A DNA stretch of 64,000 bases from Candidatus Omnitrophota bacterium (GTDB lineage Bacteria; Omnitrophota; Gorgyraeia; Tantalellales; Tantalellaceae): the NCBI GenBank assembly GCA_016783605.1, contig JADHWG010000001.1:4712-68711 (forward strand), in the 5' to 3' direction. Made by a program: the position numbers and the translations under genes. Below the pieces are notes generated by a model that saw nothing but the letters and a program-made list of their open reading frames with translations, made no database searches and had not been told where the DNA came from. Of the stretch, positions 738 to 62,636 are shown piece after piece. The stretch's first letter is position 1. Each line of letters starts with the position of its first letter.

Positions 738-845
738 ACTGTTTTTATTATCAGTCCTTTAAACTTTCTTTAGATCCGTTACGAACGATTCATTATACCG
801 TATAAGCTTTTTGTTTCAAAGAATTTCTTCCATCAATCGCTCCCA

Positions 846-893
846 CACCAACCTCGTAGGTTCAACCTCGTAGGTTGAACCTACGAGGTTGGT
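846..893. repeat. family-B triloop-hairpin palindrome cluster
   Basis: caacctcgtaggttcaacctcgtaggttgaacctacgaggttggtg. Confidence 0.7.
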
Positions 894-1355
894 GTTTTTT
901 GGGGGAGGGTGAGTGTAAATTGCTTTAGTTCGCTTTGTAAGGACTTATTTTCTTTGGGTTTTGTGATTGAGAGAGGGAAAAGAGGCGTTATCAGGCTTTT
1001 TCATAGGTTAATTTTTTTTGTAAACTTTTTATACCGAAAGTTGCCTCTTGCTTCTGGTATGATATACTTGTTCTTATAGGGACTTGCACTTTTAGATCTC
1101 ACAGCTCAGACATGGGTCTTTTATAGCTTTTCTCGCCCCCTTTCAAAACAAAAAAATAAAGGTGAAAGAAAAGCTAACTTTTAAAACAGCTTACATAAGC
1201 TGTTTTTTTTATTTGTATTAGCGTAAAGGACACCCACAAGGGGGTGCCACCACTGTATATCAAATTAACTCCCAATTCGTTACCCGAATTGTGACAATAC
1301 GCGCCCACGATCATTATTTCGTTCAAATGGTTTGTATCCTAAAATTTCGTAGGGT

Positions 1356-3548: not shown

Positions 3549-3714
3549 TAGTTGTAAACAAAATACATCAAAATGGGCATATTTGAGGGATAAAGGGCAC
3601 GGCATGCCGTGCCCCTACGAAGTTGCGGGCGGAGTATAAATATTTTTGGTTGGGCATTGTTGAGATTGCTTCGTCCCCGGGGGACGCCTGCGGGGACGAA
3701 GCAATTTTTGGATG

Positions 3715-6700: not shown

Positions 6701-8607
6701 TGCGTGCTAAGATCATTCCACCTTAGATCGTATTCTAAAAACGACGCGTATTTGTCCTCTATCGCGCCTATAATATCCGGGGTCTCATTATTCTCCGCGG
6801 CTTCTTTTGTAACATCATCTACCAGTTTTTTAAATTCAGCCTCAAGTAAAGGCTTCAAAATACCGTAATACGCACCGTATTCTTTATGTGTTTTAATGCC
6901 TTCTATCTCATCAATCTTCTGTACCGCGTCGACCTCATGGCTTAAAGCCCACACAGCTTTCATATCTTCATCATTTGTCAGGTTTTTTTTCAACGCTATT
7001 TCATCCGGCGTAACAGGAAAGAAACGTAAACCTCTTTCATGGTATTCCTTGTCCGTCATAAAGTCACCCCAAGGTCCGACGATCCTATATGCGGCTTTTT
7101 GAAATAAATCTCTTTGCGCGCGTATCGCCACAATACCCATATTCAGATAATCCCTTACCTCAGAATGCCCGATAGCAACCAGCATAGGCGCGCCGACAGG
7201 AATATCATCCGGCGTCATATCAGGCGTGACTATTGTGACAGGTCCTATCGGATCCCACTGGTACCAAACTTCGTTATTGAATCCTTTCACGTGGTTAATT
7301 TTCTTATTTTTAAGCCACAGCTCCTCGAGGATTTCTTCAGCGTCATCAGGTTTCTTGCTGATGAGCGTGGCAAATTGCTCTACGGTAAAGGGCGTATGTT
7401 TACCAAATACCTTTGCCATTTCATAATATCCTTCAAGAGATCCATCGTCTACAACAATTGTCTGCGCTATTATCTCTTCATTTCTGCGAAATATGTCCTC
7501 AAATTTCTTTTCCTGTTTTCGGAGCGCGCTTAGCCTTGCCATGATGGGCCGGATATCCGAGCCCTGCTGATTATTTACCCATTCTTCTTCGCTTTTGAAG
7601 CCAAATGCCGCGATCGCGTCAGACGTCAGTGCTATTAAGCCAAGCGCAATTCGCGTATGAATGTCTTCATGCTGTGCTAAAACTATTTTTTCCGATTCTG
7701 TGAGACGGTCATACGATGATTCCCTCATGTAGTAGTATTCCTCCACGCTTTCCAGACTTCCATATTTTTCATACTGTTTTCTTGTCTCTCTGGTACCGGG
7801 ATGGCATTCAATATCACTCGGCGCTCCAGTTGATTCAATGTATTTTTCGTAAAGTTCATCCGGCAAAACGATAAAATATCCACCGGTTGCGTTGTCTCTC
7901 CTGCCATACATTTTCATAAATTCTTCTTGTATTTTGGCCTTACCATTTGTTCTAAAGCTTACACTTATTTGCCTCTTCAGGTCTTCAATTGTAAGCGTGA
8001 TCGCCAGATTTAGCCTACCGTGCTCCTCCCGCGTCAGCGGTTTATTTCGATTCGCTCCGGTTCGGGCATACCACTCACCCGCCGACCGGGTTGGAAGACC
8101 GGCTTTTCCCCTTGCCCTTATTCTAAACTTATCGAATTCAACTTTGACGCGCGTCCTTATTTCATTCGGAATGTTTTCTTTGCCAAGATTTTTTTCATAT
8201 TTTCCTAAAAAATCCGTAAAAATCGTTTCCCAATCTTTGTCGTTTTCTACGAGTTTCATCCATTCGCTGTGCGCTTCTTTTTCGCTCTCAAAGCTAGGTA
8301 TCATCTCTTTTTTCATCCCATCAAGATAGCTCTCTACACATTTCCCGGTTGCTTCTCTGATCTTGTCAAGAACTCCGTCTTTGCTAATATCCTTGAACCA
8401 CTCTTTCAGGTTTTTCTCTACATCTTTGTCGAGTACAATCCTACTCCCAAATCCGAATTTTAAAGCTGTCGAGAGAGTGTCTTGTGTAGATTCCGGAACG
8501 ACAGAAAAACGCTCTGCCGCGAAAGTCGTATTGCTAAAAGAAAAAGCCAAAACTAAAAAAAGGCTTATTGTTTTACAGAACGTTGATTGTTTGAAATTAC
8601 TTTTCAT
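3715..8607 (-). CDS. giant secreted protein (1630 aa), function unknown; contains an HExxH (HEDIH) motif
   Basis: Long uninterrupted ORF with an N-terminal signal peptide (LFLVLAFSFSNTTFA). No family was recognised by eye. It has a single zincin-like HEDIH motif. Confidence 0.7.
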   Translation of the reverse strand: MKSNFKQSTFCKTISLFLVLAFSFSNTTFAAERFSVVPESTQDTLSTALKFGFGSRIVLDKDVEKNLKEWFKDISKDGVLDKIREATGKCVESYLDGMKKEMIPSFESEKEAHSEWMKLVENDKDWETIFTDFLGKYEKNLGKENIPNEIRTRVKVEFDKFRIRARGKAGLPTRSAGEWYARTGANRNKPLTREEHGRLNLAITLTIEDLKRQISVSFRTNGKAKIQEEFMKMYGRRDNATGGYFIVLPDELYEKYIESTGAPSDIECHPGTRETRKQYEKYGSLESVEEYYYMRESSYDRLTESEKIVLAQHEDIHTRIALGLIALTSDAIAAFGFKSEEEWVNNQQGSDIRPIMARLSALRKQEKKFEDIFRRNEEIIAQTIVVDDGSLEGYYEMAKVFGKHTPFTVEQFATLISKKPDDAEEILEELWLKNKKINHVKGFNNEVWYQWDPIGPVTIVTPDMTPDDIPVGAPMLVAIGHSEVRDYLNMGIVAIRAQRDLFQKAAYRIVGPWGDFMTDKEYHERGLRFFPVTPDEIALKKNLTNDEDMKAVWALSHEVDAVQKIDEIEGIKTHKEYGAYYGILKPLLEAEFKKLVDDVTKEAAENNETPDIIGAIEDKYASFLEYDLRWNDLSTQKIIDQQGTIAKTIEVILNNLDEVKRRIIEEISTVYEINYQIKILFENVPIETVLYQFINPYEPVKAIRGASLHEKVAKFRLEKQIPVFLELGVPSEMEITQAENIATLFGYVFKDKDAWKGDWWNNMIEDLREEYRKRLKISYGGGTKADIIEGMVEVAGYNGAFVARYIYTLANAVKLAETAAGVKDGLDLLYNFKANEKGPWMPWIQGYEDAGVDLEKVNIFHCISRLHIDAALRELRGEDVSELFRDATTDEKKKIITIDGREDNIATRGTGSNTGIIPAEFLASAGVTHAVIDPTAVSAPRQIANMEKAGIQAIIPEYEYRSTNVSNLKTKLDDDLAKTIQIISDRKHMPAITPINEVMAVHAEMTANESEPQKAAPLARQKGYYEDVEEPEGIDATITETIKNGAPFYLDLEGDIDACNLESPDAPKTITLSKLKSALKYFPEELLGKDAIRENGIVFPEMGVKELQEKDSVELNILVKSAYRMDRIIMAQSDGKNVLSLGEEPEESTHGLHILAVKTGSATISVTDARGDIKTAKIVSLAKGGFLLVIPASAKSVSVETLEQEAEILDIFVPALKRKIPIAKPFKQGKKIGGTNIVASEERGVIKDYGLKSEEVDVITINGEKKRPPKRITHGGVQRPHRLVVKSGAVEIEINNNNLLVDKDEKIVVFGPGEVIDVNMDIREDGDSIEGRLIIESPDGRKFHFRKPPTVREINDYWIKKTLHSETVIVEASYANTEGEQAVYNVYEMLEKHASLVKKNKIDLIVPKEMFSDSLSGDGSKEKTQRNLDKLFGKGAVKIKEYNSEAGLDQQSVVNLLSSSLSSKSPEDVRIPVLFATESNITAIQPESDFDMPEKLEDILKQTRILSLPDIEGLSGKGWLYASTALRIGILQGCLTPKDVQKAENGEQTLAQDIKKLMRAVTHSQDIDIKDLYLMLSYNEIPTGQRRMLQIGAAVTLMRLVLETLLLGIPMERIDRSDWKDCIDQIDSSL

Positions 8608-9009
8608 TATTATTTTCCCCCTTCGGTTAAAAACACATAATACGCGTGAGATGATCCTGTTGAACTATCACAAAATCTTCCGCCATTATCTTTCTTTTTC
8701 TCGGAATAATGGGTTTGAAAAAATCTTTTTTAAACACCTTAAAATTGTCTTTCAGAAATCCTGTTTGCCTGAATCGGCTTGATCGCTTCGTACTAAGAAT
8801 GGGTTTTTTTGAGGTATACCAAAGCATGCGTTACTTCACTGTTGAGTTTATTCACATCACTACTAAAGCAAAAAACAACTACCTTCTTTCTAAAGTACCA
8901 AAAAGGGCAAAACAAATCAACCCTTTATTTCTAACTTTTTTTCGATAAACATTGAAGTTATAAGGGCACGGCATGCCGTGCCCCTACGAAGTGGTTGGCG
9001 ATATCCCCC

Positions 9010-9078
9010 ATTTAAATAGGGACGTCACCCATTTAATTAAGAGAACAAATTGAAAATGGGTGACGTCCCTATTTAATG
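9010..9078. repeat. long inverted repeat (25-bp arms: atttaaatagggacgtcacccattt / aaatgggtgacgtccctatttaat)
   Basis: Arms separated by ~18 nt. Shares the GGGACGTCACCC core with the hairpins that flank the HEPN/MNT pair. Confidence 0.6.
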
Positions 9079-9545: not shown

Positions 9546-9664
9546 ATGTCTACCCCCCTCTTTAATAACGTTAAAAAACTTTCTCTCCCGGAACCACCTC
9601 GTAGGTGGAACCGGTTGTTCCACCTACGAGGTGGTTCCGGTAAAGGGCACGGCATGCCGTGCCC

Positions 9665-10420
9665 CTACGGGGTTGTATCGGGGTTTGGTTCTTCCCCGTC
9701 TTGTTTTGAGTGAACCATTGGAACAAATCTGACCGGCAGGAGTGTTTTTTTATTCACGCCCTCGGGTGTTTTTTCGATCAGACATAATTCTTGATGAAAA
9801 CTTCCGACGGGGACTATCATTTTGCCGCCGATTTTCAGCTGGTCTATCAATTCTTCCGGCACCTCCGGCGGCGCGGCGGTTATAACGATCGCGTCAAAAG
9901 GGGCGTATTCTTCCCAGCCTTTATATCCATCGCCGTATTTTACATGAACGTTGTCATATCCGAGTTTTTTTAGTCTTTCGCGAGCGGAATCGGCAAGCGG
10001 TTTCAATATTTCGACGCTATAGACATCTTTTACGATTTTTCCCAACACCGCCGCCTGATACCCGCATCCGGTCCCGATCTCAAGAACCCGCGTTTGGTCT
10101 TTCGGCTGAATTTGTTCTGTCATATAGGCGACAATGTACGGTTGGGAAATAGTCTGGCCATATCCGATAGGCAGCGGACAATCGCTGTACGCGGAGTTGA
10201 TCAAGTTTTCCGGCACGAACAAATGTCGTTTGACGCTCGACATCGCGTCCAAAACAGTTTTATCGGTAATGCCTCTGGCGACTATCTGTTCTTCCAGCAT
10301 TTTTTCCCTCATCTCATCAAGCGCTCCATTCTCGGCAATGGCAATAAATTCGCCCGCTGTAAAAGATAAAAGCAGACACATTATGCTAAGCAAAAAATTC
10401 ATCCTGATTTTTCGCTTCAT
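9665..10420 (-). CDS. pcm: protein-L-isoaspartate O-methyltransferase with N-terminal signal peptide
   Basis: SAM-binding motif VLEIGTGCGYQAAVL and the PCMT family C-terminal region. I moved the start to MKRKIR because the track start (MHLRGAIG) is a translation of a palindromic repeat. Confidence 0.8.
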   Translation of the reverse strand: MKRKIRMNFLLSIMCLLLSFTAGEFIAIAENGALDEMREKMLEEQIVARGITDKTVLDAMSSVKRHLFVPENLINSAYSDCPLPIGYGQTISQPYIVAYMTEQIQPKDQTRVLEIGTGCGYQAAVLGKIVKDVYSVEILKPLADSARERLKKLGYDNVHVKYGDGYKGWEEYAPFDAIVITAAPPEVPEELIDQLKIGGKMIVPVGSFHQELCLIEKTPEGVNKKTLLPVRFVPMVHSKQDGEEPNPDTTP

Positions 10421-10549
10421 TTTTGCCTGCTCTTTCGTTTCGCCAAAACTTAACAGCCTTTCATCCCAACTCTTCACCACCCCGATTGCACCTCGTAGGT
10501 GCAATCGGTTGCACCTACGAGGTGCAATCGGGGTGGTGCGAAGGTTTTG

Positions 10550-10708: not shown

Positions 10709-10741
10709 GAGAATCCCTTTCTATTCTAAACACCCAAACCA

Positions 10742-10800
10742 AAACACCAACCTCGTAGGTTACTACCAACCTACGAGGTTGGTAGTAACCTACGAGGTTG
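10742..10800. repeat. family-B palindrome cluster (three CCTACGAGG units)
   Basis: aacctcgtaggttactaccaacctacgaggttggtagtaacctacgaggttgg. Confidence 0.7.
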
Positions 10801-10818
10801 GTGTTTTGGTTATTTTAC

Positions 10819-13064: not shown

Positions 13065-13179
13065 ATTTACCGCTAAACCCTTCTTGACCGCCCGTATTTT
13101 GAACTGTATTATATCTTACAACAAACCACAATTACAAGCCTTGTTTTACCTCCCCCAAACACCCCACCCCCTTCGACAA

Positions 13180-13270
13180 CCTCGTAGGGGCACGGCATGC
13201 CGTGCCCTTTACCACACAAATCACAAATCCCATGAGGGCACGGCATGCCGTTCCCCTACGAAGTTGGTGG
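13180..13270. repeat. BIME-like composite (family-B half-site, REP-A, 28-bp linker, REP-A) in the divergent promoter region
   Basis: caacctcgtaggggcacggcatgccgtgccctttaccacacaaatcacaaatcccatgagggcacggcatgccgttcccctacg. Confidence 0.8.
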
Positions 13271-16828: not shown

Positions 16829-17533
16829 TCAAACTTTGGGGGTATTTACAAATTCTAATATTTTTGTGTATATTCCGTTATAGATCTCGAAAGAATTCGC
16901 TGTAGCGGATTTTATAAAGGCTACAAATGAAAGATCTGAAAAAAACGGGCAAAAAACTGCCATTACGACTATGAGGTTGCCTATGAGGATAAGAACTAAT
17001 GAAAAAATAATTCCCGATTTTCCAACATCCGATTGTCTTAATCTTAAGGCGTCTGACGTCATAACAAAGTGAAAAGCCAGTGTAATTCCGACCAGAAAAA
17101 CAAAAATGGCGGACATGAACGGCGGGGTTTTATCAAGTGTTTTAAGGATCCAAAAAATCGGACCCAAAAGAAGTGTATACACAGGTACAAAATAGGGACT
17201 GAGTTCTATGAAGAAATTGGTCTTGGAGGTAACTACGCTTCCGCCTCTCGGAGTTACGTTAAACTCGACAACGGTTCCTCCTGAAAGCCAGGTTGCTAAA
17301 ACATGCGTAAATTCATGTCCGAGAACATAAAGGTATACAGGTTTGGCGACAAATATATGAAAAAGAAGATATAAGAGAACTCCCCTTTCAAACAGATGGA
17401 ACAGGTTGCTGTCTAACCCCATATCCATGATCGCGCCATAAAAAGCTTTTGCCGTTCCGATTGCCACGGGCAGTAGAATAATGCCTAATATTGTTTTTAT
17501 AATTCTTGAAAACATACTTTTTATATATCTCAT
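16829..17533 (-). CDS. peptidase M50B-like membrane metalloprotease-like protein
   Basis: Multi-TM protein with an HExxH motif in a YVLGHEFTHVLATWLSGG context. Confidence 0.5.
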   Translation of the reverse strand: MRYIKSMFSRIIKTILGIILLPVAIGTAKAFYGAIMDMGLDSNLFHLFERGVLLYLLFHIFVAKPVYLYVLGHEFTHVLATWLSGGTVVEFNVTPRGGSVVTSKTNFFIELSPYFVPVYTLLLGPIFWILKTLDKTPPFMSAIFVFLVGITLAFHFVMTSDALRLRQSDVGKSGIIFSLVLILIGNLIVVMAVFCPFFSDLSFVAFIKSATANSFEIYNGIYTKILEFVNTPKV

Positions 17534-17546
17534 ACCCCAATTGCAC

Positions 17547-18860
17547 CTACGAGGTGCAATTGGGGTATGAGTTGGAATTGTGGTTTGGGGTGATTTTATC
17601 AGCGCCGAAATATGGTTTTAATGCTTCGGGGATTGTAATTGAACCATCTTTTGTTTGATAAATTTCAAGGAGTGCCACTACAAGCCTTGGAAGCGCCACA
17701 CCGGACGCATTTAGTGTGTGTACATATTTTGGTTTTTGTTTTTTGTTTTTCGATTGATATTTTATATTCGCGCGGCGCGCCTGAAAATCTGAAAAAACTG
17801 AACAGCTTGATACTTCCAGCCATCTTTTGCTTCCCGGCGCCCAAAGTTCTATATCATAACATTTGTGCGCGGCAAAACTTATGTCGCTTGTGCAAAGTTC
17901 GAGTACGCGATATGGAAGATCCATTTTTTTTAGGATGTCTTCCGCGTTCCGGAGCAAAGTTTCCAGTTCTTTCATTGATTCATCGGGATGAGTGAACTTG
18001 ACCATTTCAACTTTATCGAATTGGTGTACGCGAATGAGTCCCCGCGTATCTTTACCGTAGGAACCGGCTTCTCTTCTAAAACACGCGGTTGACGCGGTAT
18101 AGTAGATGGGAAGCGATTCCTCTTTTATCACCTCATCCGCGTGAAGATTGGTAAGAGGGACTTCCGCCGTCGGGATAAGGAAAAGATCCTCTTCTTGGAT
18201 CTTATACATGTCTTCGGCAAGCTTTGGAAGTTGTCCGGTTCCCCTCATGCTCTTACTATTGGCTAACACTGGGGGACAAATCTCTTTATATCCGTGCTCT
18301 TTCACGTGCACGTCTATCATAAAGTTTATAAGCGCTCTCTCAAGTTTGGCTCCGGCGCCGACAAAAAGCGGGAATCCGGATCCTGTTATCTTTGCCGCGC
18401 GTTCAAAATCCAAGATCCCGTTTATCTTTCCAAGTTCAATGTGATCGCGAGGAGTAAACGATATTTTGGGGATCTTTCCCCATTCTCTTACCTTTTTATT
18501 GTCTTTTTCACTTTTCCCGACGGGCACGCTTTCATGCGGCACATTCGGGATCATATCAACAATCGTTTTAAATTTCTTTTCCACCTCGCCGAGCGTGTTA
18601 TCCAATTTGCTTATTTTTTCAGAAATTTTGTTAACTTTTTCTTTGGCGCCTTCGGCGTCTTTTTTTTGTTTTATCAATTCACCGATCTTTTTTGAGGCTT
18701 CGTTTTTTTTGCGTTTTAAGGCCTCGACTTCTTGAAGCAAATCTCTTCTGATTTGGTCAACTTTTAAAAATTTATCCACCAGTTCAGGTTTATCCGATCT
18801 ATTCTTAAGCGCTTTTTTTACAATATCGGAGTTTTCTCTTATGAATTTTGCCTCAAGCAT
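17547..18860 (-). CDS. serS: seryl-tRNA synthetase
   Basis: N-terminal coiled-coil arm plus class II aaRS core (437 aa). The last ~13 codons and the stop are supplied by a family-B palindromic repeat. Confidence 0.9.
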   Translation of the reverse strand: MLEAKFIRENSDIVKKALKNRSDKPELVDKFLKVDQIRRDLLQEVEALKRKKNEASKKIGELIKQKKDAEGAKEKVNKISEKISKLDNTLGEVEKKFKTIVDMIPNVPHESVPVGKSEKDNKKVREWGKIPKISFTPRDHIELGKINGILDFERAAKITGSGFPLFVGAGAKLERALINFMIDVHVKEHGYKEICPPVLANSKSMRGTGQLPKLAEDMYKIQEEDLFLIPTAEVPLTNLHADEVIKEESLPIYYTASTACFRREAGSYGKDTRGLIRVHQFDKVEMVKFTHPDESMKELETLLRNAEDILKKMDLPYRVLELCTSDISFAAHKCYDIELWAPGSKRWLEVSSCSVFSDFQARRANIKYQSKNKKQKPKYVHTLNASGVALPRLVVALLEIYQTKDGSITIPEALKPYFGADKITPNHNSNSYPNCTS

Positions 18861-18937: not shown

Positions 18938-19899
18938 CTACCCCTTAATAACGCCTATTGGACGCATTTTTGCGACTTTTTTTGATAGTCCGGCGTTTTG
19001 GACTATATCTACCACATTCGTTACGTCTTTATACGCGTCTGACGCTTCTTCTCCAAGCGTATCTCGACCTGTATATCGTACAATAATGCCCTTATCGGCG
19101 AGTTCTCGAACGATGGAACGCCCTCGTGTGATCTTTTTGGCCAATGTACGCGACATCAATCTTCCCGCGCCGTGACATGTGGAATTAAACGTCTCTCGCG
19201 CCTCTTTTGTTCCGCTTAAAAGATAGGAACACGTGCCCATATCTCCCGGAATTATTACGGGCTGACCCGTTCGTCTATATTTTACCGGCAGGTCTTTGTG
19301 TCCCGGACCTAACGCGCGTGTGGCTCCCTTACGATGAACGCATAACGCGCGTAATTTGCCTTTAATTTCATAATTTTCTATTTTTCCGATATTATGCGCC
19401 ACATCATAAACCAAATGTAGACCTAAAGATTCAGCACTCGCGCCAAACACTTCTTCAAAAACTCCGCGTGTTAAATGCATTATCACTTGCCGGTTACACC
19501 ACGCGTAATTCGCCGCCGCGCGCATGGCGCCGAGATACGCTTCGCCTTCTTCGCTTTTAACCGGCACGCACGCGAGTTGACGATCCGGCATGTTTATTCC
19601 GAATTTTGACATCAGTTTTATCATGCTTGCCGCGTAATCACCGCACACTTGGTGTCCGAATCCTCTGGAGCCTGTATGTATCATTACCGTAATTTGTCCT
19701 TTTCTATACCGAATATTTTTGCTTCTTTTTCGCTGTAAATTTCATCCACCACCTGCACTTCAAGAAAATGGTTGCCCGAACCTAACGTCCCGGACTGTTT
19801 TTGTCCGCGCTGACGCGCGCGGAGCAACATCTTTTTCAAAAAGATCCGTCCGCATAAACCTTACGCCGCAATTTGATACTACAAAATTGTTAGCGATAA
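18938..19899 (-). pseudogene. rtcB: rtcB RNA ligase, disrupted: -1 frameshift in an A-run plus loss of the N-terminal ~120+ aa
   Basis: The C-terminal 248-aa ORF carries MIHTGSRGFGHQ…HGAGR. An upstream different frame carries [19 protein letters not shown]…FGIEK and terminates where the C-frame begins ([10 protein letters not shown]). Only ~90 bp, all of it repeat, separates this from the archease stop. Confidence 0.6.
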
Positions 19900-19912
19900 A
19901 ATTATGAACCGC

Positions 19913-19976
19913 GAAACAACCTCGTAGGTTGAACCTACGAGGTTGACGGAGGGGTGCAACTTACGAGGTTGTTTCG
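19913..19976. repeat. family-B triloop-hairpin palindrome cluster (CCTCGTAGG / CCTACGAGG) nested in a larger inverted repeat
   Basis: ccgcgaaacaacctcgtaggttgaacctacgaggttg…cttacgaggttgtttcgcgg; occupies the position where the rtcB 5' region should be. Confidence 0.7.
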
Positions 19977-19992
19977 CGGTGGAATTGGGAGT

Positions 19993-29157: not shown

Positions 29158-29224
29158 ATTGTTCCTCTTTCGAGAACAATTGTACTCATATTGAGAACAT
29201 AAGTCAAGCTTAATTTCAAAATGA

Positions 29225-29265
29225 AAACAGGGACATCTCCCTTGCGGGTGACATCCCTGTTTTTA
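29225..29265. repeat. hairpin-terminator repeat, copy 2
   Basis: aacagggacatctcccttgcgggtgacatccctgtt followed by a T-run. Confidence 0.7.
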
Positions 29266-29416
29266 TAGAAACTGTTCATTTTTTATACATATCAGATATA
29301 TTTACACTTTTGCTTATATATTCTGCTCTTTTTGCATATAAGAATTTTTCTGAATGAGACCCTCCTCAAATGACTATCATTGAATAAGTACCTTTTCGGA
29401 GATAAAGAGATAAGAA

Positions 29417-29662
29417 CTATTGGTTATTGCCGATGAGGGCCAGTTTTTTAGTCCTGTTCCATTTCTTAAGCTGGATTTCGCGGTTTCTGGCTGTGGATTT
29501 ATCAGGATGCTCTTCCTGATAAACAAGTTCAACCGGGAGGCGCATTCTGGTGTATCTACTTGCCTTCTTTTTGTTGTGGCGTTCGACTCTTTTTGTAACG
29601 TCCGTGGTTATGCCGACATAGAGTTTGCCGTCATTGCATTGTAAAATATAAAGATACCACAT
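29417..29662 (-). CDS. GIY-YIG nuclease superfamily protein (UPF0213-like)
   Basis: YILQCNDGKLYVGITTDVTKRVERHN motif; I moved the start to MWYLY. Confidence 0.75.
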   Translation of the reverse strand: MWYLYILQCNDGKLYVGITTDVTKRVERHNKKKASRYTRMRLPVELVYQEEHPDKSTARNREIQLKKWNRTKKLALIGNNQ

Positions 29663-29693
29663 AAGCTTTGGTATGCCGTAAATTTGCATGATA

Positions 29694-29960
29694 CTGGCCC
29701 CTCGACTCGCTCTTCGAGCTCGCTCGGGGTCAAATATAAAAAGTCCCGATTAAGTGTTTTTTAACCGGGACTTCTTTTTCGCGTTACGTTTTTCTGGTCC
29801 CTCAACTCGCTAAAATGCTCCTTCTCGTCGCATTTCTTCACGCTCGTTCGGGATCAATTTTCGCGTTCGCGAAAATTGGTCCCTCAACTCGCTAAAATGC
29901 TCCTTCTCGTCGCATTTCTTCACGCTCGTTCGGGATCAATTTTCGCGTTCGCGAAAATTG
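29694..29960. repeat. tandem repeat: one degenerate plus two perfect 82-bp units abutting the tRNA-Lys 3' end
   Basis: The unit gtccctcaactcgctaaaatgctccttctcgtcgcatttcttcacgctcgttcgggatcaattttcgcgttcgcgaaaattg occupies 29797..29878 and 29879..29960. The last unit overlaps the tRNA CCA. On the tRNA strand each unit ends …GGGAC followed by CA. Confidence 0.8.
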
Positions 29961-30034
29961 GTGAGCCGCCTTGGACTCGAACCAAGCACCCACGCCTTAA
30001 AAGGGCGTTGCTCTACCGGATGAGCTAGCGGCCC
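29959..30034 (-). tRNA. tRNA-Lys (anticodon UUU), CCA encoded
   Basis: Acceptor stem GGGCCGC/GCGGCUC, anticodon arm ACGCC-CUUUUAA-GGCGU, T-arm GGTTCGAGTCC. Confidence 0.85.
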
Positions 30035-31361: not shown

Positions 31362-31508
31362 TTCAACCAGTTTTCACTACTCCACCAACTAACACCAATT
31401 CACGGGCGGACGCAAGGCCCGCCCCTACACTTTACCATCCCCGATTCCACCTACGAGGTGGAATCGGGGGGACTAACGATTTTAAAGGTTTTTCTTTTGG
31501 ACTTTAAA

Positions 31509-33283: not shown

Positions 33284-33413
33284 GTAGGGGCACGGCATGC
33301 CGTGCCATTTACCGCACCAATCATCGATCCAATGAGGGCACGGCATGCCGTGCCATTTACCGCACCAATCATCGATCCAATGAGGGCACGGCATGCCGTG
33401 CCCCTACGAGGTT
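33284..33413. repeat. BIME-like array: three REP-A palindromes (GGGCACGGCATGCCGTGCC) separated by an identical 28-bp linker
   Basis: Cores at ~33288, 33336 and 33384; linker atttaccgcaccaatcatcgatccaatga. Its 'spacers' are identical, so it is not a CRISPR. Confidence 0.8.
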
Positions 33414-35251: not shown

Positions 35252-35454
35252 ATGTATTCACCTTACGTTATAATACTCGGGAAAATCCTTAAACCCAGAT
35301 ATTGCATTAGAACATGGCGAAGAATGCAATATCTGGGTTAAACATAACTGGTAAATCTTAGCACACATGCCCGCTATTGTCGAGAATTTCAGCATCCCCC
35401 ACCCAACACCCAATGCTAACTTTTATTATCTTAACCCACCTTGCTGGCAACTTC

Positions 35455-35535
35455 GTAGGGGCACGGCATGCCGTGCCCTTTATCACACAAATCACCAATC
35501 CCATGAGGGCACGGCATGCCGTGCCCCTACGAGGT
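35455..35535. repeat. BIME-like composite: REP-A, linker tttatcacacaaatcaccaatcccatga, REP-A, fused to a family-B half-site
   Basis: The same architecture recurs at 13180..13270. Confidence 0.8.
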
Positions 35536-39962: not shown

Positions 39963-39982
39963 GATATTGTCTGATTGTCTCA

Positions 39983-40047
39983 CCCCCTCGACAACCTCGT
40001 AGATTGCACCTCGTAGGTGCAACCTACGAGGTTGTCGAGGGGGTAAA
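39983..40047. repeat. family-B triloop-hairpin palindrome cluster
   Basis: caacctcgtagattgcacctcgtaggtgcaacctacgaggttg. Confidence 0.7.
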
Positions 40048-47652: not shown

Positions 47653-47716
47653 ATTTTACCACCATTTTTGATTGTTAAATAATAACACACATACCCACCA
47701 CATTCAAGAGTTAATT

Positions 47717-47855
47717 GAGGGGTCGGGGAGTTTCCCGACTCCTCATCCTGAAGCCCAAAGGGCTGAAGGATCTCTATAGATTCTTTTGGAAGATTAACAA
47801 GAGATCCTTCGCTTTGCTCAGGATGAGTGGTCGGAGAAAAACTCCCCGACCCCTC
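47717..47855. mobile_element. MITE-1, copy 1 (139 bp; TIR GAGGGGTCGGGGAG; TSD AGTTAATT)
   Basis: ~60-bp imperfect inverted arms; identical 8-bp direct repeats flank the element at 47709..47716 and 47856..47863; inserted next to a REP-A copy. Confidence 0.8.
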
Positions 47856-47885
47856 AGTTAATTGAGGGCACGGCATGCCGTGCCC

Positions 47886-48434: not shown

Positions 48435-48566
48435 TATGCAAACTCCAACTTTCGCAGGCTGTGCCCTATCCACCTACGAGGCGGAATAGCTTCTTGAGGC
48501 ACATGCAATGTGCCCGTTCGATTCGGGCAAATTTATTCGGGCACATTGCATGTGCCCGTTCGAATC

Positions 48567-50440: not shown

Positions 50441-50449
50441 AAATTAATT

Positions 50450-50588
50450 GAGGGGTCGGGGAGTTTCCCGACTCCTCATCCTGAAGCCCAAAGGGCTGAA
50501 GGATCTCTATAGGTTCTTTTGGAAAATTAACAAGAGATCCTTCGCTTTGCTCAGGATGAGTGGTCGGAGAAAAACTCCCCGACCCCTC
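50450..50588. mobile_element. MITE-1, copy 2 (139 bp; TSD AATTAATT)
   Basis: Same TIRs as copy 1; 8-bp direct repeats at 50442..50449 and 50589..50596. Confidence 0.8.
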
Positions 50589-50590
50589 AA

Positions 50591-51856
50591 TTAATTCAAA
50601 TCCGCCCCTACTTGTTTGCGCACCCGCGCGGGAACTCCCATTACCGTTTCTCCGGCGGCGACATCTTTATTTTTCGTAACAACACTTCCCGCGCCTATTT
50701 TCGCGCCTTTCCCAATTTTTACCGGCGCAACAAAAATTGCGCCGACTCCTACAAACACATCATCTTCTATTATCGTGTTAAACTTTTTCTCACCATCATA
50801 ATTCGCGGTGATCACTCCCGCGCCGACATTCACTCGCTTGCCGACTACGGCGTCCCCCAGATACGTGTGATGTTTCACCCGCGTTTTGGTTCCTATTTTT
50901 GTCCGGCAAACTTCCACAAAATTTCCTATTTCAACTTCTTCCGCAAGCCGCGAACCGCCGCGAAGCCTGGCAAAGGGCCCGATCCGGCAGGCCGCCTTAA
51001 TTTCAACATCGGCTTCAATAACCGTATTCGGAAAAATTATGGTTTCAGCTTCGATCTTTGCCGATTCATCTATGTATGTCGACTCCGGAGCGATTATGGT
51101 CACTCCTTTTTTCATTAACTTCTCGAGAGTTTTTCTGTTCATAATAGTATTCGCGCGCGCCAGATCTTCTCTTGAATTTATCCCTACCGCCTCTTCCGCG
51201 CCGCAACCGACCGCAACCGCTTTTTTCCCATTCTTCACAAAGAGATCAATAACATCCGTCAGATAAAACTCTTTTTTCTTCTCGTTGATCTTAACGCGTT
51301 TTATAAATTCTTCAAGGCCATCTCGAAGAAAACAATAAGTTCCGACATTTATCTCTTTAATTTCTTTTTGAGCTTGTGTCGCGTCTTTTTCCTCACAAAT
51401 CGCCGAGACATTTCCATCCGCGCCGCGAATGATTCGCCCGTATTCCCCCGCGTCGGTTAAAACCGAAGTTAATACCGTACACCCCGCCTTCTCTGAAAAA
51501 TGTGTATCCATCAAATTTCGATAAGTCGCACTTGTTATGAGAGGCGCATCAGCGCACGTTACCAATACGTCTTTTTCTTTCGTAAGACCGTCCAGCGCCT
51601 GTTTCAGGGCGTCTGCCGATCCCAAAAGTTTTTTTTGTTCAACAAACTTTAGTTTTTCACCTGTCAAAGAACTTTTGATCTGCTCCGCGTTATATCCTAC
51701 AACAACCGTAATGTCCGTTATACCGGAGGATCTAAGATTTTCTATAACTCTTCCCAATATCGTCTTCGATCCAACTTTGTGCAATACTTTGGGAAGACCG
51801 GATTTCATCCTGGTCCCTTTACCCGCCGCCAAAACAACCGCCGTAATGTTATTCAT
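50591..51856 (-). CDS. glmU: bifunctional GlcNAc-1-P uridyltransferase / GlcN-1-P acetyltransferase (GlmU-like)
   Basis: N-terminal nucleotidyltransferase motif LAAGKGTRM and a C-terminal left-handed beta-helix with hexapeptide repeats. Confidence 0.75.
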   Translation of the reverse strand: MNNITAVVLAAGKGTRMKSGLPKVLHKVGSKTILGRVIENLRSSGITDITVVVGYNAEQIKSSLTGEKLKFVEQKKLLGSADALKQALDGLTKEKDVLVTCADAPLITSATYRNLMDTHFSEKAGCTVLTSVLTDAGEYGRIIRGADGNVSAICEEKDATQAQKEIKEINVGTYCFLRDGLEEFIKRVKINEKKKEFYLTDVIDLFVKNGKKAVAVGCGAEEAVGINSREDLARANTIMNRKTLEKLMKKGVTIIAPESTYIDESAKIEAETIIFPNTVIEADVEIKAACRIGPFARLRGGSRLAEEVEIGNFVEVCRTKIGTKTRVKHHTYLGDAVVGKRVNVGAGVITANYDGEKKFNTIIEDDVFVGVGAIFVAPVKIGKGAKIGAGSVVTKNKDVAAGETVMGVPARVRKQVGADLN

Positions 51857-51953
51857 CTTTCTGTTTCCTTAAGTTCCCACCGATAATTGGCTACCCGATG
51901 CTGTCCATAGCCTAATTTCAAACATCAATTTTGTCAACTATTTGAGGGGTCGG

Positions 51954-52064
51954 GGAGTTTTTCGACCCCTCATCCTGAAGCCCAAAGGGCTGAAGGATCT
52001 CTATAGATCCTTCGCTTCGCCCAAGATGACACCTTTGCAAGAGGGGAAAACTCCCCGACCCCTC
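51954..52064. mobile_element. MITE-1, copy 3 (111 bp internal-deletion variant; TSD AACTATTT)
   Basis: Same TIRs; 8-bp direct repeats at 51946..51953 and 52065..52072. Confidence 0.75.
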
Positions 52065-53812: not shown

Positions 53813-54748
53813 TCAGTACGTACTTACCACACATATCCGCCAATTTTCTTCTTTCGGAAATGCGCCAAGAAGTCTCTTCTCCGCCTGCCGCACAACCTCC
53901 TCGTCAAAAATCCCAAAAACAGTAGAACCGCTTCCGGATAAAAGAGTACCAAGCGCGCCGGCACCTTCTAATTCACGAAACACCTTTTTTAAAACGGGAA
54001 ATTCTCGTAATACTATTGGCTGTAAATCGTTATGAAGATTTTTTGCCAAACTCCCGCTGTTTTTATCCTCCAAAAAAGCGCTGAACATTCTATCAAGGGC
54101 TATATCCTTTGTCAAGCCAAAAGGGGAAAAGCGCCCGTATACGTCTTTTGTTAAGATTTTAAACGGCGGTATTACAAGCACATGCCAAATTTTGCGTTCA
54201 AACTCGAGTTTCGTAATAATGTCTCCGCGACCCTTTCCGCAGGCGAAGTTCGCGTCATTCAAAAAAAAAGGAACATCCGCGCCCAACTTGCCGGCAATGT
54301 CCAAAAGTGAGGTTTTGTTAAGCTTCTGCCCCGTTATTTTGTTCATCGCGCGCAATATCGCCGCGGCATCACTGGAACCTCCACCTAGTCCGCCGCCGGA
54401 AGGAATGTTCTTTTTAAGCTTAATAATAAAATTGTCGTTAACGGCGGCCTTTTCCTTAAAAAGCCTGACCGTGCGGCCCATTAAACTGTCGGAACAAACC
54501 GGAATGGACGGATCGTCACATTCGATCCGGATGCCGGTATCAGTTTCATCACCCCCGATTCCACCTCGTAGGTGGAACTCGTTCCACCTACGAGGTGGAA
54601 TCGGGGTACGATCATCAATTACATCAATGTTGATCTCGTCACAGAGTGAAATTTTTTCGAAGATCGTCTCGATGGAATGATATCCATCATTCCTCTTATT
54701 GAGAACTCTTAAGAATAGGTTCACTTTGGCAGGCGCGGTAATAAACAT
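53813..54748 (-). CDS. ispE: 4-diphosphocytidyl-2-C-methyl-D-erythritol kinase with an in-frame 18-codon palindromic-repeat insertion
   Basis: GHMP kinase motifs (APAKVNLFL; PSGGGLGGGSSDAAA). The segment …PIPPRRWNEFHLRGGIGG… is the translation of a family-B double hairpin (54548..54602). I moved the start to MFITAPAKV. Confidence 0.75.
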   Translation of the reverse strand: MFITAPAKVNLFLRVLNKRNDGYHSIETIFEKISLCDEINIDVIDDRTPIPPRRWNEFHLRGGIGGDETDTGIRIECDDPSIPVCSDSLMGRTVRLFKEKAAVNDNFIIKLKKNIPSGGGLGGGSSDAAAILRAMNKITGQKLNKTSLLDIAGKLGADVPFFLNDANFACGKGRGDIITKLEFERKIWHVLVIPPFKILTKDVYGRFSPFGLTKDIALDRMFSAFLEDKNSGSLAKNLHNDLQPIVLREFPVLKKVFRELEGAGALGTLLSGSGSTVFGIFDEEVVRQAEKRLLGAFPKEENWRICVVSTY

Positions 54749-54831
54749 GATGTATGTCCTTATATAAACGAATGATCTATGGAGATCCTTCGCTTCGCTC
54801 AGGATGAGGGGTCGAGAAATACCCCGCCCCC

Positions 54832-55779
54832 TCATTTACGTTTTAACAGATCTTCCATTTCCCTTACGATATCATCCACCCGCAGCCCGAAATGTTCATA
54901 CAATTCGTCCGGAGCGCCGCTTACTCCAAATTTTCCCTTTATGCCCATAAGCTTCATAGGACAAGGCTTTTCCTGAACGATCACTTCCGCGACAGCGCTT
55001 CCCAGCCCGCCATAAACGGTATGTTCTTCCACTGTCAAGATCGCCCCGGTTTCTTCCGCCGCGTTTATTATTGTTTCCTTATCGATCGGACACGGTGTGT
55101 GCAAATTTATTACACGGATATTTATTCCTTTAGATTTCAAAACTTCCGCCGCTTCGATCGCGCTTGTAACCAAATGCCCGCACGCGACTATCGTAGCATC
55201 GTTTCCCTCGGTCACGACATCCGCTTTACCTATCTTAAATTCCGATGTTCGTTTTAATATCGGAACTTTGACGCGTCCCAATCTGATATATACGGGCCCG
55301 GGTATATCCGCCGCCTGGAGAGTCGCTAAATTCGCCTCTTCAGAATCTGCCGGAACGACAACCGTCATATTCGGAATGATCCTCATAAGCGCGATCTCCT
55401 CCAACGCTTGGTGGGTCGCCCCGTCTTCTCCGACTGAAATTCCTCCGTGACTTCCGATAATATTCACATTCAAATTCATGTATGCCACCGACACTCTGAC
55501 CTGATCCCACGCGCGTCCGGAAGCAAACGCTCCGAACGTACACGCGAACGGTATCTTTCCCGAAAGCGCCAGTCCCGCCGCCGCGCATATCATATCCTGT
55601 TCGGCTACACCATGACTGATAAAACGCTCCGGATATTTTTCTTTAAACCAATTGGCTCTCACCGATTCCGTTAGATCCGCGGATAAAACAACTACATCTT
55701 TATTGGTCCGCCCCAAGTCAAGTAAAGCTTTCCCGAATCCGTCCCTGGTTGCCTCGCGCTCCGCACCTTTTTCTTTCAT
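54832..55779 (-). CDS. transketolase, C-terminal (pyrimidine-binding) subunit
   Basis: Split-type transketolase C-half of 315 aa. Confidence 0.85.
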   Translation of the reverse strand: MKEKGAEREATRDGFGKALLDLGRTNKDVVVLSADLTESVRANWFKEKYPERFISHGVAEQDMICAAAGLALSGKIPFACTFGAFASGRAWDQVRVSVAYMNLNVNIIGSHGGISVGEDGATHQALEEIALMRIIPNMTVVVPADSEEANLATLQAADIPGPVYIRLGRVKVPILKRTSEFKIGKADVVTEGNDATIVACGHLVTSAIEAAEVLKSKGINIRVINLHTPCPIDKETIINAAEETGAILTVEEHTVYGGLGSAVAEVIVQEKPCPMKLMGIKGKFGVSGAPDELYEHFGLRVDDIVREMEDLLKRK

Positions 55780-58635: not shown

Positions 58636-58724
58636 CCGCCGGCGATCAAAATTGACGACGCGCCTTTCGCCGGCAACCTCGTAGGGGCACGGCGTGCCGT
58701 GCCCCTACGTTGATTATCCGATCC

Positions 58725-58905
58725 GTTTTTTCTCTTTGTCAATTAATCGGACAAGGCAGGCCTTGTCCCTACGAACAATATAAAACATACCCAACAAATC
58801 GTAGGGGCCGGGCCTGCCCGGCCCTTTTATCCCCATCATCATTGATAACCTTTATGTGTTGGTGCCATTATAAACGGTTACCTGAATTGTGACAATATAC
58901 ACCCT
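58725..58905. mobile_element. MITE-2, 5'-truncated copy, flanked by a 35-bp duplication of the transketolase-N 3' end
   Basis: Right TIR ggttacctgaattgtgacaat is present and the left TIR is absent. Direct repeats ttgattatcc(g/a)atccgttttttctctt(t/c)gtcaa lie at ~58711..58745 and ~58906..58940. Confidence 0.65.
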
Positions 58906-58917
58906 ACCATTTATTGA

Positions 58918-61289: not shown

Positions 61290-61487
61290 TTAAGTTATAC
61301 CTTTCTCTTCTTGTGCCGGTCTCTTCTCATTCTTTTTTTCCGTTTATGTCTTTTAACTTTTTTTATTTTTCTTTTCTTCCCACAGGGCATGCCGTTTCCA
61401 CCTCCTTAAATCGGCTGTAACATAGTAGGGTACAGACATGCCTGTACCTACCCTATTAACGGACAAGCACAGGGGCCTGTCCCTTGT

Positions 61488-61752
61488 ATATTGTCACAAT
61501 TCAGGTAACAAATCGATAGTGACCGGGGGGCCACCCGACCATTTTATCCCCTCTTCAATTAATCGGACAAGGCAGGCCTTGTCCCTACGAATAATATAAA
61601 GCATATCACAACAAATCGTACGAATAATATAAAACATGCCACAACAAATCGTAGGGGCCGGGCCTGCCCGGCCCTTTTATCCCCATCATTATTGATAACC
61701 CTTATATGTTGGTGTCATTATAAACGGTTACCTGAATTGTGACAATGTACAC
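61488..61752. mobile_element. MITE-2, complete copy (~265 bp; TIR ATTGTCACAATTCAGGTAAC)
   Basis: Left TIR tattgtcacaattcaggtaac and right TIR gttacctgaattgtgacaatgtaca. Internal conserved blocks aattaatcggacaaggcaggccttgtccctacga and gtaggggccgggcctgcccggccc. Confidence 0.75.
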
Positions 61753-61757
61753 CCTAC

Positions 61758-62636
61758 CTAATATATCACCTTGTTTAACGGATATTCTATGAATCCTTCC
61801 GCGCCGGCTTTTCTTAGGCGCGGGATCAGTTTTTTTAGCGTCTCTTCATCTATAACCGTTTCGATATCCACCCATTTTTCGTCAAAAAGCATGGAAACGG
61901 TCGGAGTTTTTATCGCCGGAAGGATCTTTATTATCTTTTTCACGTCAACTTTCCTGGCGTTCATTTTTAGACCTACTTTTCCTTCGGCAAGGATAGCTCC
62001 CCTCAGAAGCAAAGTTATTCGCTCTATCTTTTCTTTTTTCCACGCGTCCCTCCACGCCTTCTTGTTGGCAATAAACCGCGTGGTTGATTCGCAAACGGTC
62101 TCCACGATCTTTAAGTCATTAGCTCTAAGACTGTTACCGGTTTCGGTCACCTCAACGATCGCGTCTATGCCCATTTTGGGTTTGACTTCCGTCGCTCCCC
62201 AACTGAACTCCACTTCCGCTTTTACGTTTTTTTTTCGAAGAAACCGCTTGGTGACATTAACCAGTTCCGTCGCCACTTTTTTCCCTTTGAGATCTTTTAC
62301 GCCTTTAATACTCGAACCTTTAAGCACCGCGAGAACCCACTTAACCGGTTTCATACTTTGTTTCGCATAAACAAGTTCCGCCACTTTTTTTACATCCGAA
62401 GAATTCTCTTCTATCCAGTCATTCCCCGTTATCCCGCAATCGATGATCCCGTCTTCGACATAACGAGACATTTCCTGCGCTCTAAACAGAATCACCTCTA
62501 TCTCATCATCATCGATATCCGGGAAATACGACCTTGAAGATATTTTGATCTTATATCCCGCTTTATCGAACAGTCTTACCGTGGCTTCCTGAAGGCTCCC
62601 TTTTGGAATGCCTATTTTTAATACTTTTTTACTCAT
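61758..62636 (-). CDS. hisG: ATP phosphoribosyltransferase (long form)
   Basis: [11 protein letters not shown]-terminus; 292 aa including the C-terminal regulatory domain. Confidence 0.85.

Follow-up and report, generated by a model that had tools for sequence, protein, structure and literature searches.

The 64-kb stretch of Candidatus Omnitrophota DNA analyzed here (64,000 nucleotides, referred to as the window) contains a gene for 4-diphosphocytidyl-2-C-methyl-D-erythritol kinase, ispE, whose reading frame carries an inserted palindromic repeat. The ispE coding sequence (CDS) lies on the minus strand at 53813..54748, starts with the ATG at 54748 and encodes 311 aa with the insert, within a transketolase - ispE - spoVG - ... 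- glmU - prs gene order that is conserved with relatives. Its product scores 176.4 bits against TIGR00154 (cut-off 138.7), with the match broken into two stretches by the insert. Solved IspE structures match the protein by sequence, and its AlphaFold2 model superimposes on 2v2q, 4emd, 1uek and 1oj4 with Foldseek TM scores of 0.81-0.89 (0.86-0.89 for the first three). The alignment indicates that the invariant GHMP/IspE positions and the catalytic motifs are kept, so that profile, motifs and fold all place the protein in the IspE family of GHMP kinases (TIGR00154). The protein begins MFITAPAKVNL..., a start that is common to the near homologues of 286 aa and to the identical NCBI protein MBL7072202.1 (locus tag ISS33_00310), for which the database gives no more than the name 'hypothetical protein'. 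An earlier note on this DNA had assigned 53813-54835 to ispE. That interval is the stop-to-stop open reading frame (ORF) of 340 aa, and its first 29 codons (54749..54835, minus strand, MRGRGISRPLILSEAKDLH...) are a false N-terminal extension overlapping a separate repeat family, the plus-strand translation of which reads 'EILRFAQDE'. The ENA gene call P0121 takes this 340-aa long form, with the 29 false N-terminal residues included.

Relative to its orthologues the window gene carries 75 additional nucleotides at 54539..54613 on the minus strand, which correspond to 25 codons (aa 44-68) and encode the peptide IDDRTPIPPRRWNEFHLRGGIGGDE. The earlier note had counted 18 added codons; it is the alignment to orthologues that gives 25. 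When the 311-aa protein is compared to its best homologues (286 aa, 66-92% identical outside the gap) there is one clean 25-residue gap, and all 120 of the other homologues compared are without the segment. At the DNA level, the empty sites of six contigs from relatives (L001, L002, L003, L005, L006 and L007) show a clean 75-nt gap. The closest empty allele (P0122, 286 aa), which belongs to the same 90%-identity cluster, occurs in Logan assemblies from different SRA runs (L006 and L007); its ispE DNA is 93.1% identical to that of the window and has exactly 75 nt fewer. The ispE insertion is thus real and lineage-specific, as the earlier note had proposed, and the possibility raised there that orthologues share the inserted residues as native sequence is contradicted by all 120 homologues and by the six empty-site contigs. 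Deletion from all relatives in place of insertion was also considered and ruled out because 120 homologues are without the segment and because the segment belongs to a dispersed repeat family.

The filled allele is present as well in an ENA SPAdes contig (L008) that agrees with the window at 99.988% of positions across 16.2 kb, with 2 differences in 16,199. The ENA SPAdes contigs have a coverage of ~9x, and the 340-aa insert-bearing product is on record for 3 ENA contigs. These observations bear on whether the palindrome is an assembly or sequencing artefact derived from a chimeric read or from fold-back, a concern that arises with a metagenome-assembled genome (MAG) as source, since amplified libraries can yield perfect hairpins by fold-back. 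However, an allele shared by the NCBI MAG contig and the ENA contigs, a frame that is kept, a repeat family with 17 loci in the window and related copies at orthologous sites in relatives leave an artefact next to no chance of being the explanation.

The core of the insert is a perfect two-unit palindrome of 54 nt at 54553..54606, with 26-nt arms and a 2-nt centre, that reads CCCCGATTCCACCT-CGT-AGGTGGAAC-TC-GTTCCACCT-ACG-AGGTGGAATCGGGG and has GTAG-GTGGAAC-TC-GTTCCAC-CTAC at its centre. The double copy that the earlier note had reported within the ispE frame is therefore present, on the minus strand, although its coordinates are these and not 54548-54602. In minus-strand order, the 75-nt insert consists of GATCGTA, the 54-nt palindrome, GT and then GATGAAACTGAT. 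The outer 14-nt arms of the palindrome are the same as the arms of a single-unit copy located at 31439..31469 between tsf and pyrH, which indicates the membership of the insert in a dispersed family, here called family B.

Family B has the core (C/A)ACCT-CGT/ACG-AGGT(G/T) and is built on CCTCGTAGG/CCTACGAGG. In the window there are 24 matches to CCTACGAGG at 17 loci, where 0.16 are expected, and 9 matches to CACCTNNNAGGTG versus 0.01 expected; of the 11 perfect hairpins whose arms reach 12 nt or more, 9 have a CGTAG/CTACG core. The earlier figure of at least 12 family-B loci is slightly high if the strictly defined core is used (~11 loci) and holds once copies linked to a second repeat, REP-A, are included (17 loci), REP standing for repetitive extragenic palindrome. 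Sixteen of the 17 repeat loci lie between genes, two of them abutting or overlapping ORF 3' ends (serS and pcm), and ispE is the only gene with an internal copy. The repeat units measure 13-31 nt and assemble into composites of 43-75 nt with perfect arms. Indeed, the arms are perfect in every large family-B element while arm sequences vary between elements, and units within one element match each other (TTCC in ispE, TTGC at 10475 and GGAACC at 9588). The GTAG is in the loop of single units, while two-unit forms read GTAG-stem-loop-stem-CTAC inside an outer palindrome.

Intergenic three-unit palindromes occur at 845..895 (24-nt arms) and at 10737..10811 (36-nt perfect arms), and an additional element lies between the archease gene and an rtcB remnant (19908..19980). 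The family-B 22-mer CACCTACGAGGTGSAATYGGGG has no match in the GTDB representative genomes, a collection that includes neither the source genome nor its close carriers. The Rfam matches in the window are limited to three tRNAs, with none of the repeats assigned to a known RNA family, and no paper was found on these repeat sequences or on such repeats in Omnitrophota. Identity of the repeats as CRISPR, tRNA or riboswitch was ruled out, there being no spaced arrays and no Rfam match.

The position of the insert in the protein is also informative. The segment between the "EINID" and "IRIEC" strands has 14 residues in 107 of 121 IspE homologues and 39 in the window protein only, and the 20 and 23 residues found there in two further homologues indicate that this turn tolerates changes in length. 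The longer loop of homologue P0023 was tested as a possible further palindromic insert and contains no palindrome. The AlphaFold2 model (mean pLDDT 90.7, pTM 0.89) shows the insert as a coil running from strand 24-44 to strand 73-77, and pLDDT drops under 50 for residues 54-69. The insert is thus modelled as a disordered, solvent-exposed loop at the tip of the beta2-beta3 hairpin, and this tip would lie on the end of the beta1-beta2 ribbon that is remote from the DGYH cytidine-binding turn. Placement in a surface loop, which the earlier note had suggested, is therefore borne out by the homologue alignment together with a model that matches solved IspE folds.

We weighed whether the gene that received the insert is decaying or inactive, with the step that it catalyzes being dispensable or served by another copy. 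Omnitrophota include reduced, host-dependent lineages, the NCBI product name is uninformative, and the nearby rtcB, which abuts a family-B element, is clearly a pseudogene. Against this, the 311-codon ORF is intact, the invariant motifs are kept and synteny is conserved. Comparison with four empty-site relatives, with the insert left out, gave dN/dS values of 0.17-0.27 at dS values of 0.17-0.52. The ispE gene is under purifying selection, and we give an inactive ispE only a very slim chance.

A different proposal is that the repeat peptide PIPPRRWNEFHLRGGIG has gained a function in IspE, for instance by offering a new surface for interaction, and that selection at the protein level retains it. 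This is what the earlier note had in mind in describing the repeats as "being domesticated into coding sequence". Retention of the insert in an essential gene under purifying selection and its identity in separately assembled contigs would agree with such a role, and proteins of Rickettsia that bear Rickettsia palindromic elements (RPEs) are expressed (PMC3733652). However, among 121 homologues the peptide is confined to one population, and it is modelled as unstructured; its DNA has kept the 100% symmetry of the palindrome, with no divergence at the codon level. With the palindrome perfect, nothing suggests that protein-level selection has reshaped the insert. Furthermore, other frames of the family yield unrelated peptides and 16 of 17 loci are extragenic, only one being internal to a gene. 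A search of 5.8 billion protein clusters with the translated repeat (a 60-aa synthetic concatenation) returned just 11 word-sharing candidates, none at E <= 10, in a search that cannot score such short matches, since the source protein with its 19/19 identical stretch was also left unscored; this argues weakly against widespread translated copies. The description as domestication does not stand up to these observations, and we regard domestication as very improbable.

The hairpin could alternatively be kept for a role at the nucleic acid level, either as an RNA stem that tunes expression of ispE and the downstream spoVG or as a DNA site for protein binding or gyrase. The computed folding energy of the ispE palindrome is -55.2 kcal/mol (z = -9.0) for RNA and -33.1 kcal/mol for DNA, and a 26-bp stem of -55 kcal/mol and z = -9 could throttle translation or be a target of RNase III. 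Its symmetry is perfect although the short direct repeats that flank it, discussed below, have diverged at 2 of 12 positions. REPs elsewhere are also known to act on mRNA stability and termination (PMC3733652). Relatives without the hairpin nevertheless manage, and all other large members of the family are equally perfect wherever they are placed. Symmetry is therefore a property of the family and not of the ispE site, and a selected role for this hairpin appears improbable.

Repeats of this kind also reach the ends of other genes. The serS CDS (17547..18860, minus strand) has its last 7 codons (SYPNCTS) and its TAG stop inside a single-unit family-B palindrome at 17529..17571 with 20-nt arms and a 3-nt loop, the stop (17547-17549) being part of the CGTAG loop. 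The serS product scores 530 bits against TIGR00414, and this profile ends 20 residues short of the stop. A relative whose SerS is 83% identical (L010) ends in ...KITPTI* without such a repeat, while a second relative with 89% identity (L009) ends in ...NFNCTDPNRTS*, where the stop is the loop TAG of a two-unit element at the orthologous site. There is consequently one unit at the serS 3' end in the window, two in L009 (~3640-3710) and none in L010 (~8380-8420), and the presence of one versus two units at an orthologous site indicates that unit number changes in place. The earlier assertion that serS takes its final codons and its stop from a repeat is confirmed by this comparison, with the span corrected from 17541..17567 to 17529-17571. 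The L010 serS 3' end carries another palindrome, TTAAATAGGGACGTCTCCCATTTAA, that contains its TAA stop. Upstream of serS, the intergenic regions of relatives contain other repeats and have diverged too far for an empty site to be recognized.

A second stop donated by a repeat, absent from the earlier note, is found at pcm. A REP-A unit (CGTAG head followed by GGGCACGGCATGCCGTGCCC) occupies 9645..9669 on the minus strand at the pcm 3' end, with its GTAG head providing the TAG stop at 9665-9667, and the pcm ORF runs 11 residues beyond the end of the PIMT profile. For serS and pcm, the native stop would have been lost, translation would then have entered the adjoining 3' repeat, and the TAG of the GTAG tag would have terminated it. 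A position directly 3' of ORFs is the usual one for REPs, with 5' copies only opening spurious upstream ORFs. Four such leader copies are present: a two-unit palindrome between sixA and pcm (9588..9640) that causes a false sixA N-terminal extension, a two-unit palindrome with 30-nt arms upstream of pcm (10475..10538) that gives the false extension ...PIAPRRCNRLHLRGAIG..., a three-unit palindrome upstream of lpxI (39982..40044) that gives ...PRRLHLRGAI..., and a degenerate unit upstream of pth (48461..48487) that gives a false 14-codon extension. In the stop-to-stop ORFs, the NCBIfam profiles start at residue 78 for pcm, 27 for sixA, 15 for pth and 37 for lpxI. These late starts agree with the earlier view of the leader copies and establish that the repeats are outside the genes, where they merely open misleading extensions.

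The rtcB remnant that adjoins one of the family-B elements spans 18938-19905. Its ORF (18938-19741) covers only positions 169-426 of Pfam RtcB, the ~50 residues before it are read in a different frame and the N-terminal third is absent, with the truncated 5' end abutting the element at 19908-19980. In the relative L010, archease is followed directly by serS, without rtcB.

REP-A, the second palindromic repeat, is a classical REP in which a GTAG(G) head precedes the GC-rich palindrome GGGCACGGCATGCCGTGCCC, and it occurs both as single copies and as inverted doublets. Besides the copy at pcm, REP-A is found at 3592-3619, 8961-8988, 13177-13266, 33289-33411, 35450-35535 and 58680-58709. The copy at 13177..13266 is an inverted doublet with a 26-nt spacer that resembles a REPIN, and a second doublet at 35450-35535 has a near-identical spacer, TTTA(C/T)CACACAAATCAC(A/C)AATCCCATGA. 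This near-identity suggests that the doublet itself is a copied unit. The extended head that REP-A has in this genome, CAACCTCGTAGG (9-12 nt), corresponds to the left half of CAACCT-CGT-AGGTTG, the family-B unit, and REP-A and family B therefore share a tag. As regards the GTAG-tagged REP superfamily, the window repeats are short palindromic units present in repeated copies, are mostly extragenic and near ORF 3' ends, and form inverted dimers. The position of GTAG at the end of a stem-loop fits REP-A; family B always has CGTAG/CTACG, not in the canonical position in every form.

REP-A has a wide distribution beyond this genome. Among GTDB representative genomes, at least 117 stretches (L070-L186) contain its exact 24-mer GGCACGGCATGCCGTGCCCCTACG, usually with unrelated flanks. 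Carriers among the matches listed include Acidobacteriota, Planctomycetota, Chloroflexota, Cyanobacteria, Chlorobiaceae, Omnitrophota and a genome of the candidate phyla radiation (CPR), as well as cultured isolates of Nostoc and Iodobacter. No paper containing the REP-A sequence was found. In a Chlorobiaceae MAG (L118, 4380-5120), an ORF resembling the Y1 transposases of the RAYT group (tyrosine transposases associated with REPs) is flanked on both sides by REP-A and has a GTAG as its own stop. REP-A is also in frame inside this ORF and inside a RAYT-like ORF of a Dehalococcoidia MAG (L076, 1895-2509), just past the HUH motif, in the context ...VMPNHVHGI...RGTACRAPT.... The Y1_Tnp scores are 31.4 bits for L076 and 20.9 bits for L118, the latter being below the gathering score of 23. 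With REP-A flanking and inside Y1-transposase genes elsewhere, we take it to be the REP of a RAYT-type system, and on its sequence the L118 locus is a putative REPtron whose transposase carries its own REP in frame. By analogy, a RAYT may also serve the organism studied here and its family-B repeats.

Taken together, the insert in ispE is very probably a tolerated selfish passenger of REP type, the survivor of a neutral, frame-preserving insertion, and not a new functional module. We envision that GTAG/CTAC-tagged palindromic repeats of REP type proliferated in this Omnitrophota lineage with nearly all copies remaining extragenic, and that one two-unit copy landed in ispE. Its survival would have depended on a length of 75 nt, which is a multiple of three, on the frame in use having no stop (4 of the 6 frames of the element are open) and on an exposed hairpin tip as the site of entry. 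With these three properties the enzyme would keep its fold with an extra disordered loop of 25 residues, and purifying selection would keep the rest of ispE intact. A single unit would lengthen the gene by 52 nt and shift its frame, so that the insert either arrived as the two-unit form or very quickly became so. Mobilisation may have been by a RAYT-type Y1 transposase acting on GTAG hairpins. An alternative or additional route may be template switching during replication, which would also explain the perfect arms and the doubling of units in situ. Arms that are perfect and yet differ between elements, along with one versus two units at serS, suggest that symmetry is regenerated locally, possibly by intrastrand template switching at hairpins.

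Carried further, the latter route would make family B a derivative of the REP head (CAACCT-CGT-AGGTTG) that templates itself in place, proceeding from one to two to three nested units by intrastrand template switching. Copies would then be symmetric while diverging from each other, and the ispE insert, with its flanking duplication of 12-13 nt, would be based on replication and not on RAYT/IS200 activity. If so, a copy that has landed in a gene can later expand or contract. Within the same reading, exact REP-A 24-30-mers across many phyla, sometimes in frame inside a RAYT-like ORF, hint at a REP-RAYT system that is very widely exchanged. We consider this version unlikely.

Several points weigh against the account of the insert as a mobile, tolerated repeat of REP type. 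No RAYT or other transposase gene and no HUH motif was found in the 64-kb window, and family B carries its GTAG in the loop or where nested stems meet, whereas textbook REPs have it at the base of one stem-loop. In addition, the insert is flanked by a candidate target-site duplication. The first copy, GATGTAATTGAT (54614..54625, minus strand), directly precedes the insert on the coding strand, and the second, GATGAAACTGAT (54539-54550, minus strand), is identical to it at 10 of 12 positions; each copy also matches the single GATGTTACTGAT of the relative L002 at 10 of 12 positions. A target duplication of 12-13 nt is only suggested by this repeat, as the stretch is GAT-rich, and no similar duplication was evident at the other repeat copies looked at, the outer arms of which vary between copies. 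A MITE, as a non-autonomous derivative of a DDE transposon, would be expected to have terminal inverted repeats in common with a parent IS and a target duplication of fixed length. Transposition of the IS200/RAYT type leaves no target duplication, so that a 12-13-nt direct repeat argues for a different or additional mechanism of insertion. Moreover, the two copies differ at 2 of 12 positions although the 54-nt palindrome is perfect, which means either that the insertion is not very recent and its symmetry has been maintained or that the duplication is partly coincidental. Finally, the neutrality of the insert is something that we infer, and a perfect 26-bp stem in the mRNA could slow ribosomes or draw RNase III, with a possible cost or regulatory effect.

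The window contains additional repeats and putative mobile sequences. The 'EILRFAQDE...' family that overlaps the false ispE extension is dispersed, with copies at 54779-54835 and ~50531-50600 and also at 47711-47863, 50448-50596 and 51936-52012; tandem copies of a related 'GAATTCGCTTCGCTCAACATTGTCATCC' unit are located upstream of serS in L009 and L011. A dispersed repeat of 140-180 nt has at least 3 copies that are 88-94% identical (1357-1585, 58739-58908 and 61483-61758; BLAST of L008 against the window). A further palindromic family (TTAAATAGGGACGTCACCCATTTAA / AAATGGGTGACGTCCCTATTTAA) occurs at 9012-9076 and 29221-29266, and a related copy overlaps the serS stop in L010. Within 29417-30034, a small ORF for a GIY-YIG nuclease (Pfam PF01541, 72 bits) adjoins a tRNA gene (29962-30034) and has an inverted-repeat pair, CAATTTTCGCGTTCGCGAAAATTG (29855-29960), beside it; the ORF and inverted repeats may be another selfish element.

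These results indicate that selfish palindromes of REP type very probably reach coding sequence in the uncultured phylum Omnitrophota, in parallel to the RPEs of Rickettsia and the GTAG REPs of Opitutus. They mislead both gene calling and automated naming, as seen with an IspE listed as a 'hypothetical protein', with spurious N-terminal extensions and with repeat-derived C-termini in neighboring genes. Filled and empty alleles that share 93% DNA identity also constitute a natural experiment on the tolerance of an essential GHMP kinase for a loop of 25 residues and for a 26-bp hairpin in its mRNA.

Several known systems bear comparison to this one. REP and REPIN-RAYT systems are reportedly described in the work of Nunvar et al. 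from 2010 and of Bertels and Rainey from 2011. Like them, the REP-A copies of the window combine a GTAG(G) head with a GC-rich stem-loop and form inverted doublets with a conserved spacer, and in L118 the identical REP flanks a Y1-transposase gene on both sides. In contrast, REPs are extragenic by definition and the ispE element, as a member of family B, shares only the CAACCTCGTAGG head with REP-A. Template-switch mutagenesis at quasipalindromes, said to have been proposed in the Ripley model and studied by the Lovett laboratory, reportedly produces point and short-patch mutations in laboratory strains. Such a model would explain arms that are perfect yet specific to each element, palindromes that extend into unique flanks and the variation of unit number at the serS site. 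It is not known to give rise to dispersed families of repeats.

The RPEs, reportedly described by Ogata et al. in 2000, are similar in being selfish palindromes located in frame at surface positions of genes that still function, where they add a peptide, with survivorship explaining the pattern. By position in frame, in a conserved gene, at a predicted surface site and with a modelled fold that is intact, the ispE insert behaves as an RPE would. In sequence it belongs to none of RPE-1 to RPE-10, being a 54-nt GTAG-tagged palindrome from an Omnitrophota host. RPE-1 has a length of ~100-150 bp, the short RPE-4/6 are CGTC-tagged and not GTAG-tagged, there is no sequence relationship, and RPEs have an intracellular alphaproteobacterium as host. 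Genes also harbor RPEs often, with 44 insertions in R. conorii, while only one locus of the 17 described here lies inside a gene. In the summary given in PMC10969869, RPEs are the classic case of palindromes in frame in housekeeping genes.

The closest counterpart is the set of intragenic GTAG/CGTC-tagged REPs found in several species, most of them in Opitutus terrae, a member of the PVC (Planctomycetes-Verrucomicrobia-Chlamydiae) superphylum, and in R. conorii (Di Nocera et al. 2013, BMC Genomics 14:522, PMC3733652). More than half of those intragenic REPs are dimers or grouped repeats encoding 20-30 aa, ~10% are at ORF 3' ends, those at N-termini are mostly misannotation, and tRNA synthetase genes are among the targets; in the O. 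terrae dimers (GTAG-17/19) the partners are 1-2 bp apart (PMC3733652). The repeats described here are alike in being GTAG/CTAC palindromes that are mostly extragenic with an occasional copy in frame, in having ispE dimer partners 2 bp apart, and in including copies at ORF 3' ends, misannotated N-terminal copies and a decorated tRNA synthetase gene in a host from the PVC superphylum. They differ in that the Omnitrophota host and the ispE target are new, in the imperfect 12-13-nt direct repeat flanking the insert, in the placement of the family-B GTAG in the loop or nested-stem junction, and in the presence of up to three nested units with perfect arms. Every element of the finding thus has a counterpart among the REPs of that study (PMC3733652), and the Omnitrophota repeats extend a known kind of system to a further host and gene and are not a new kind of system.

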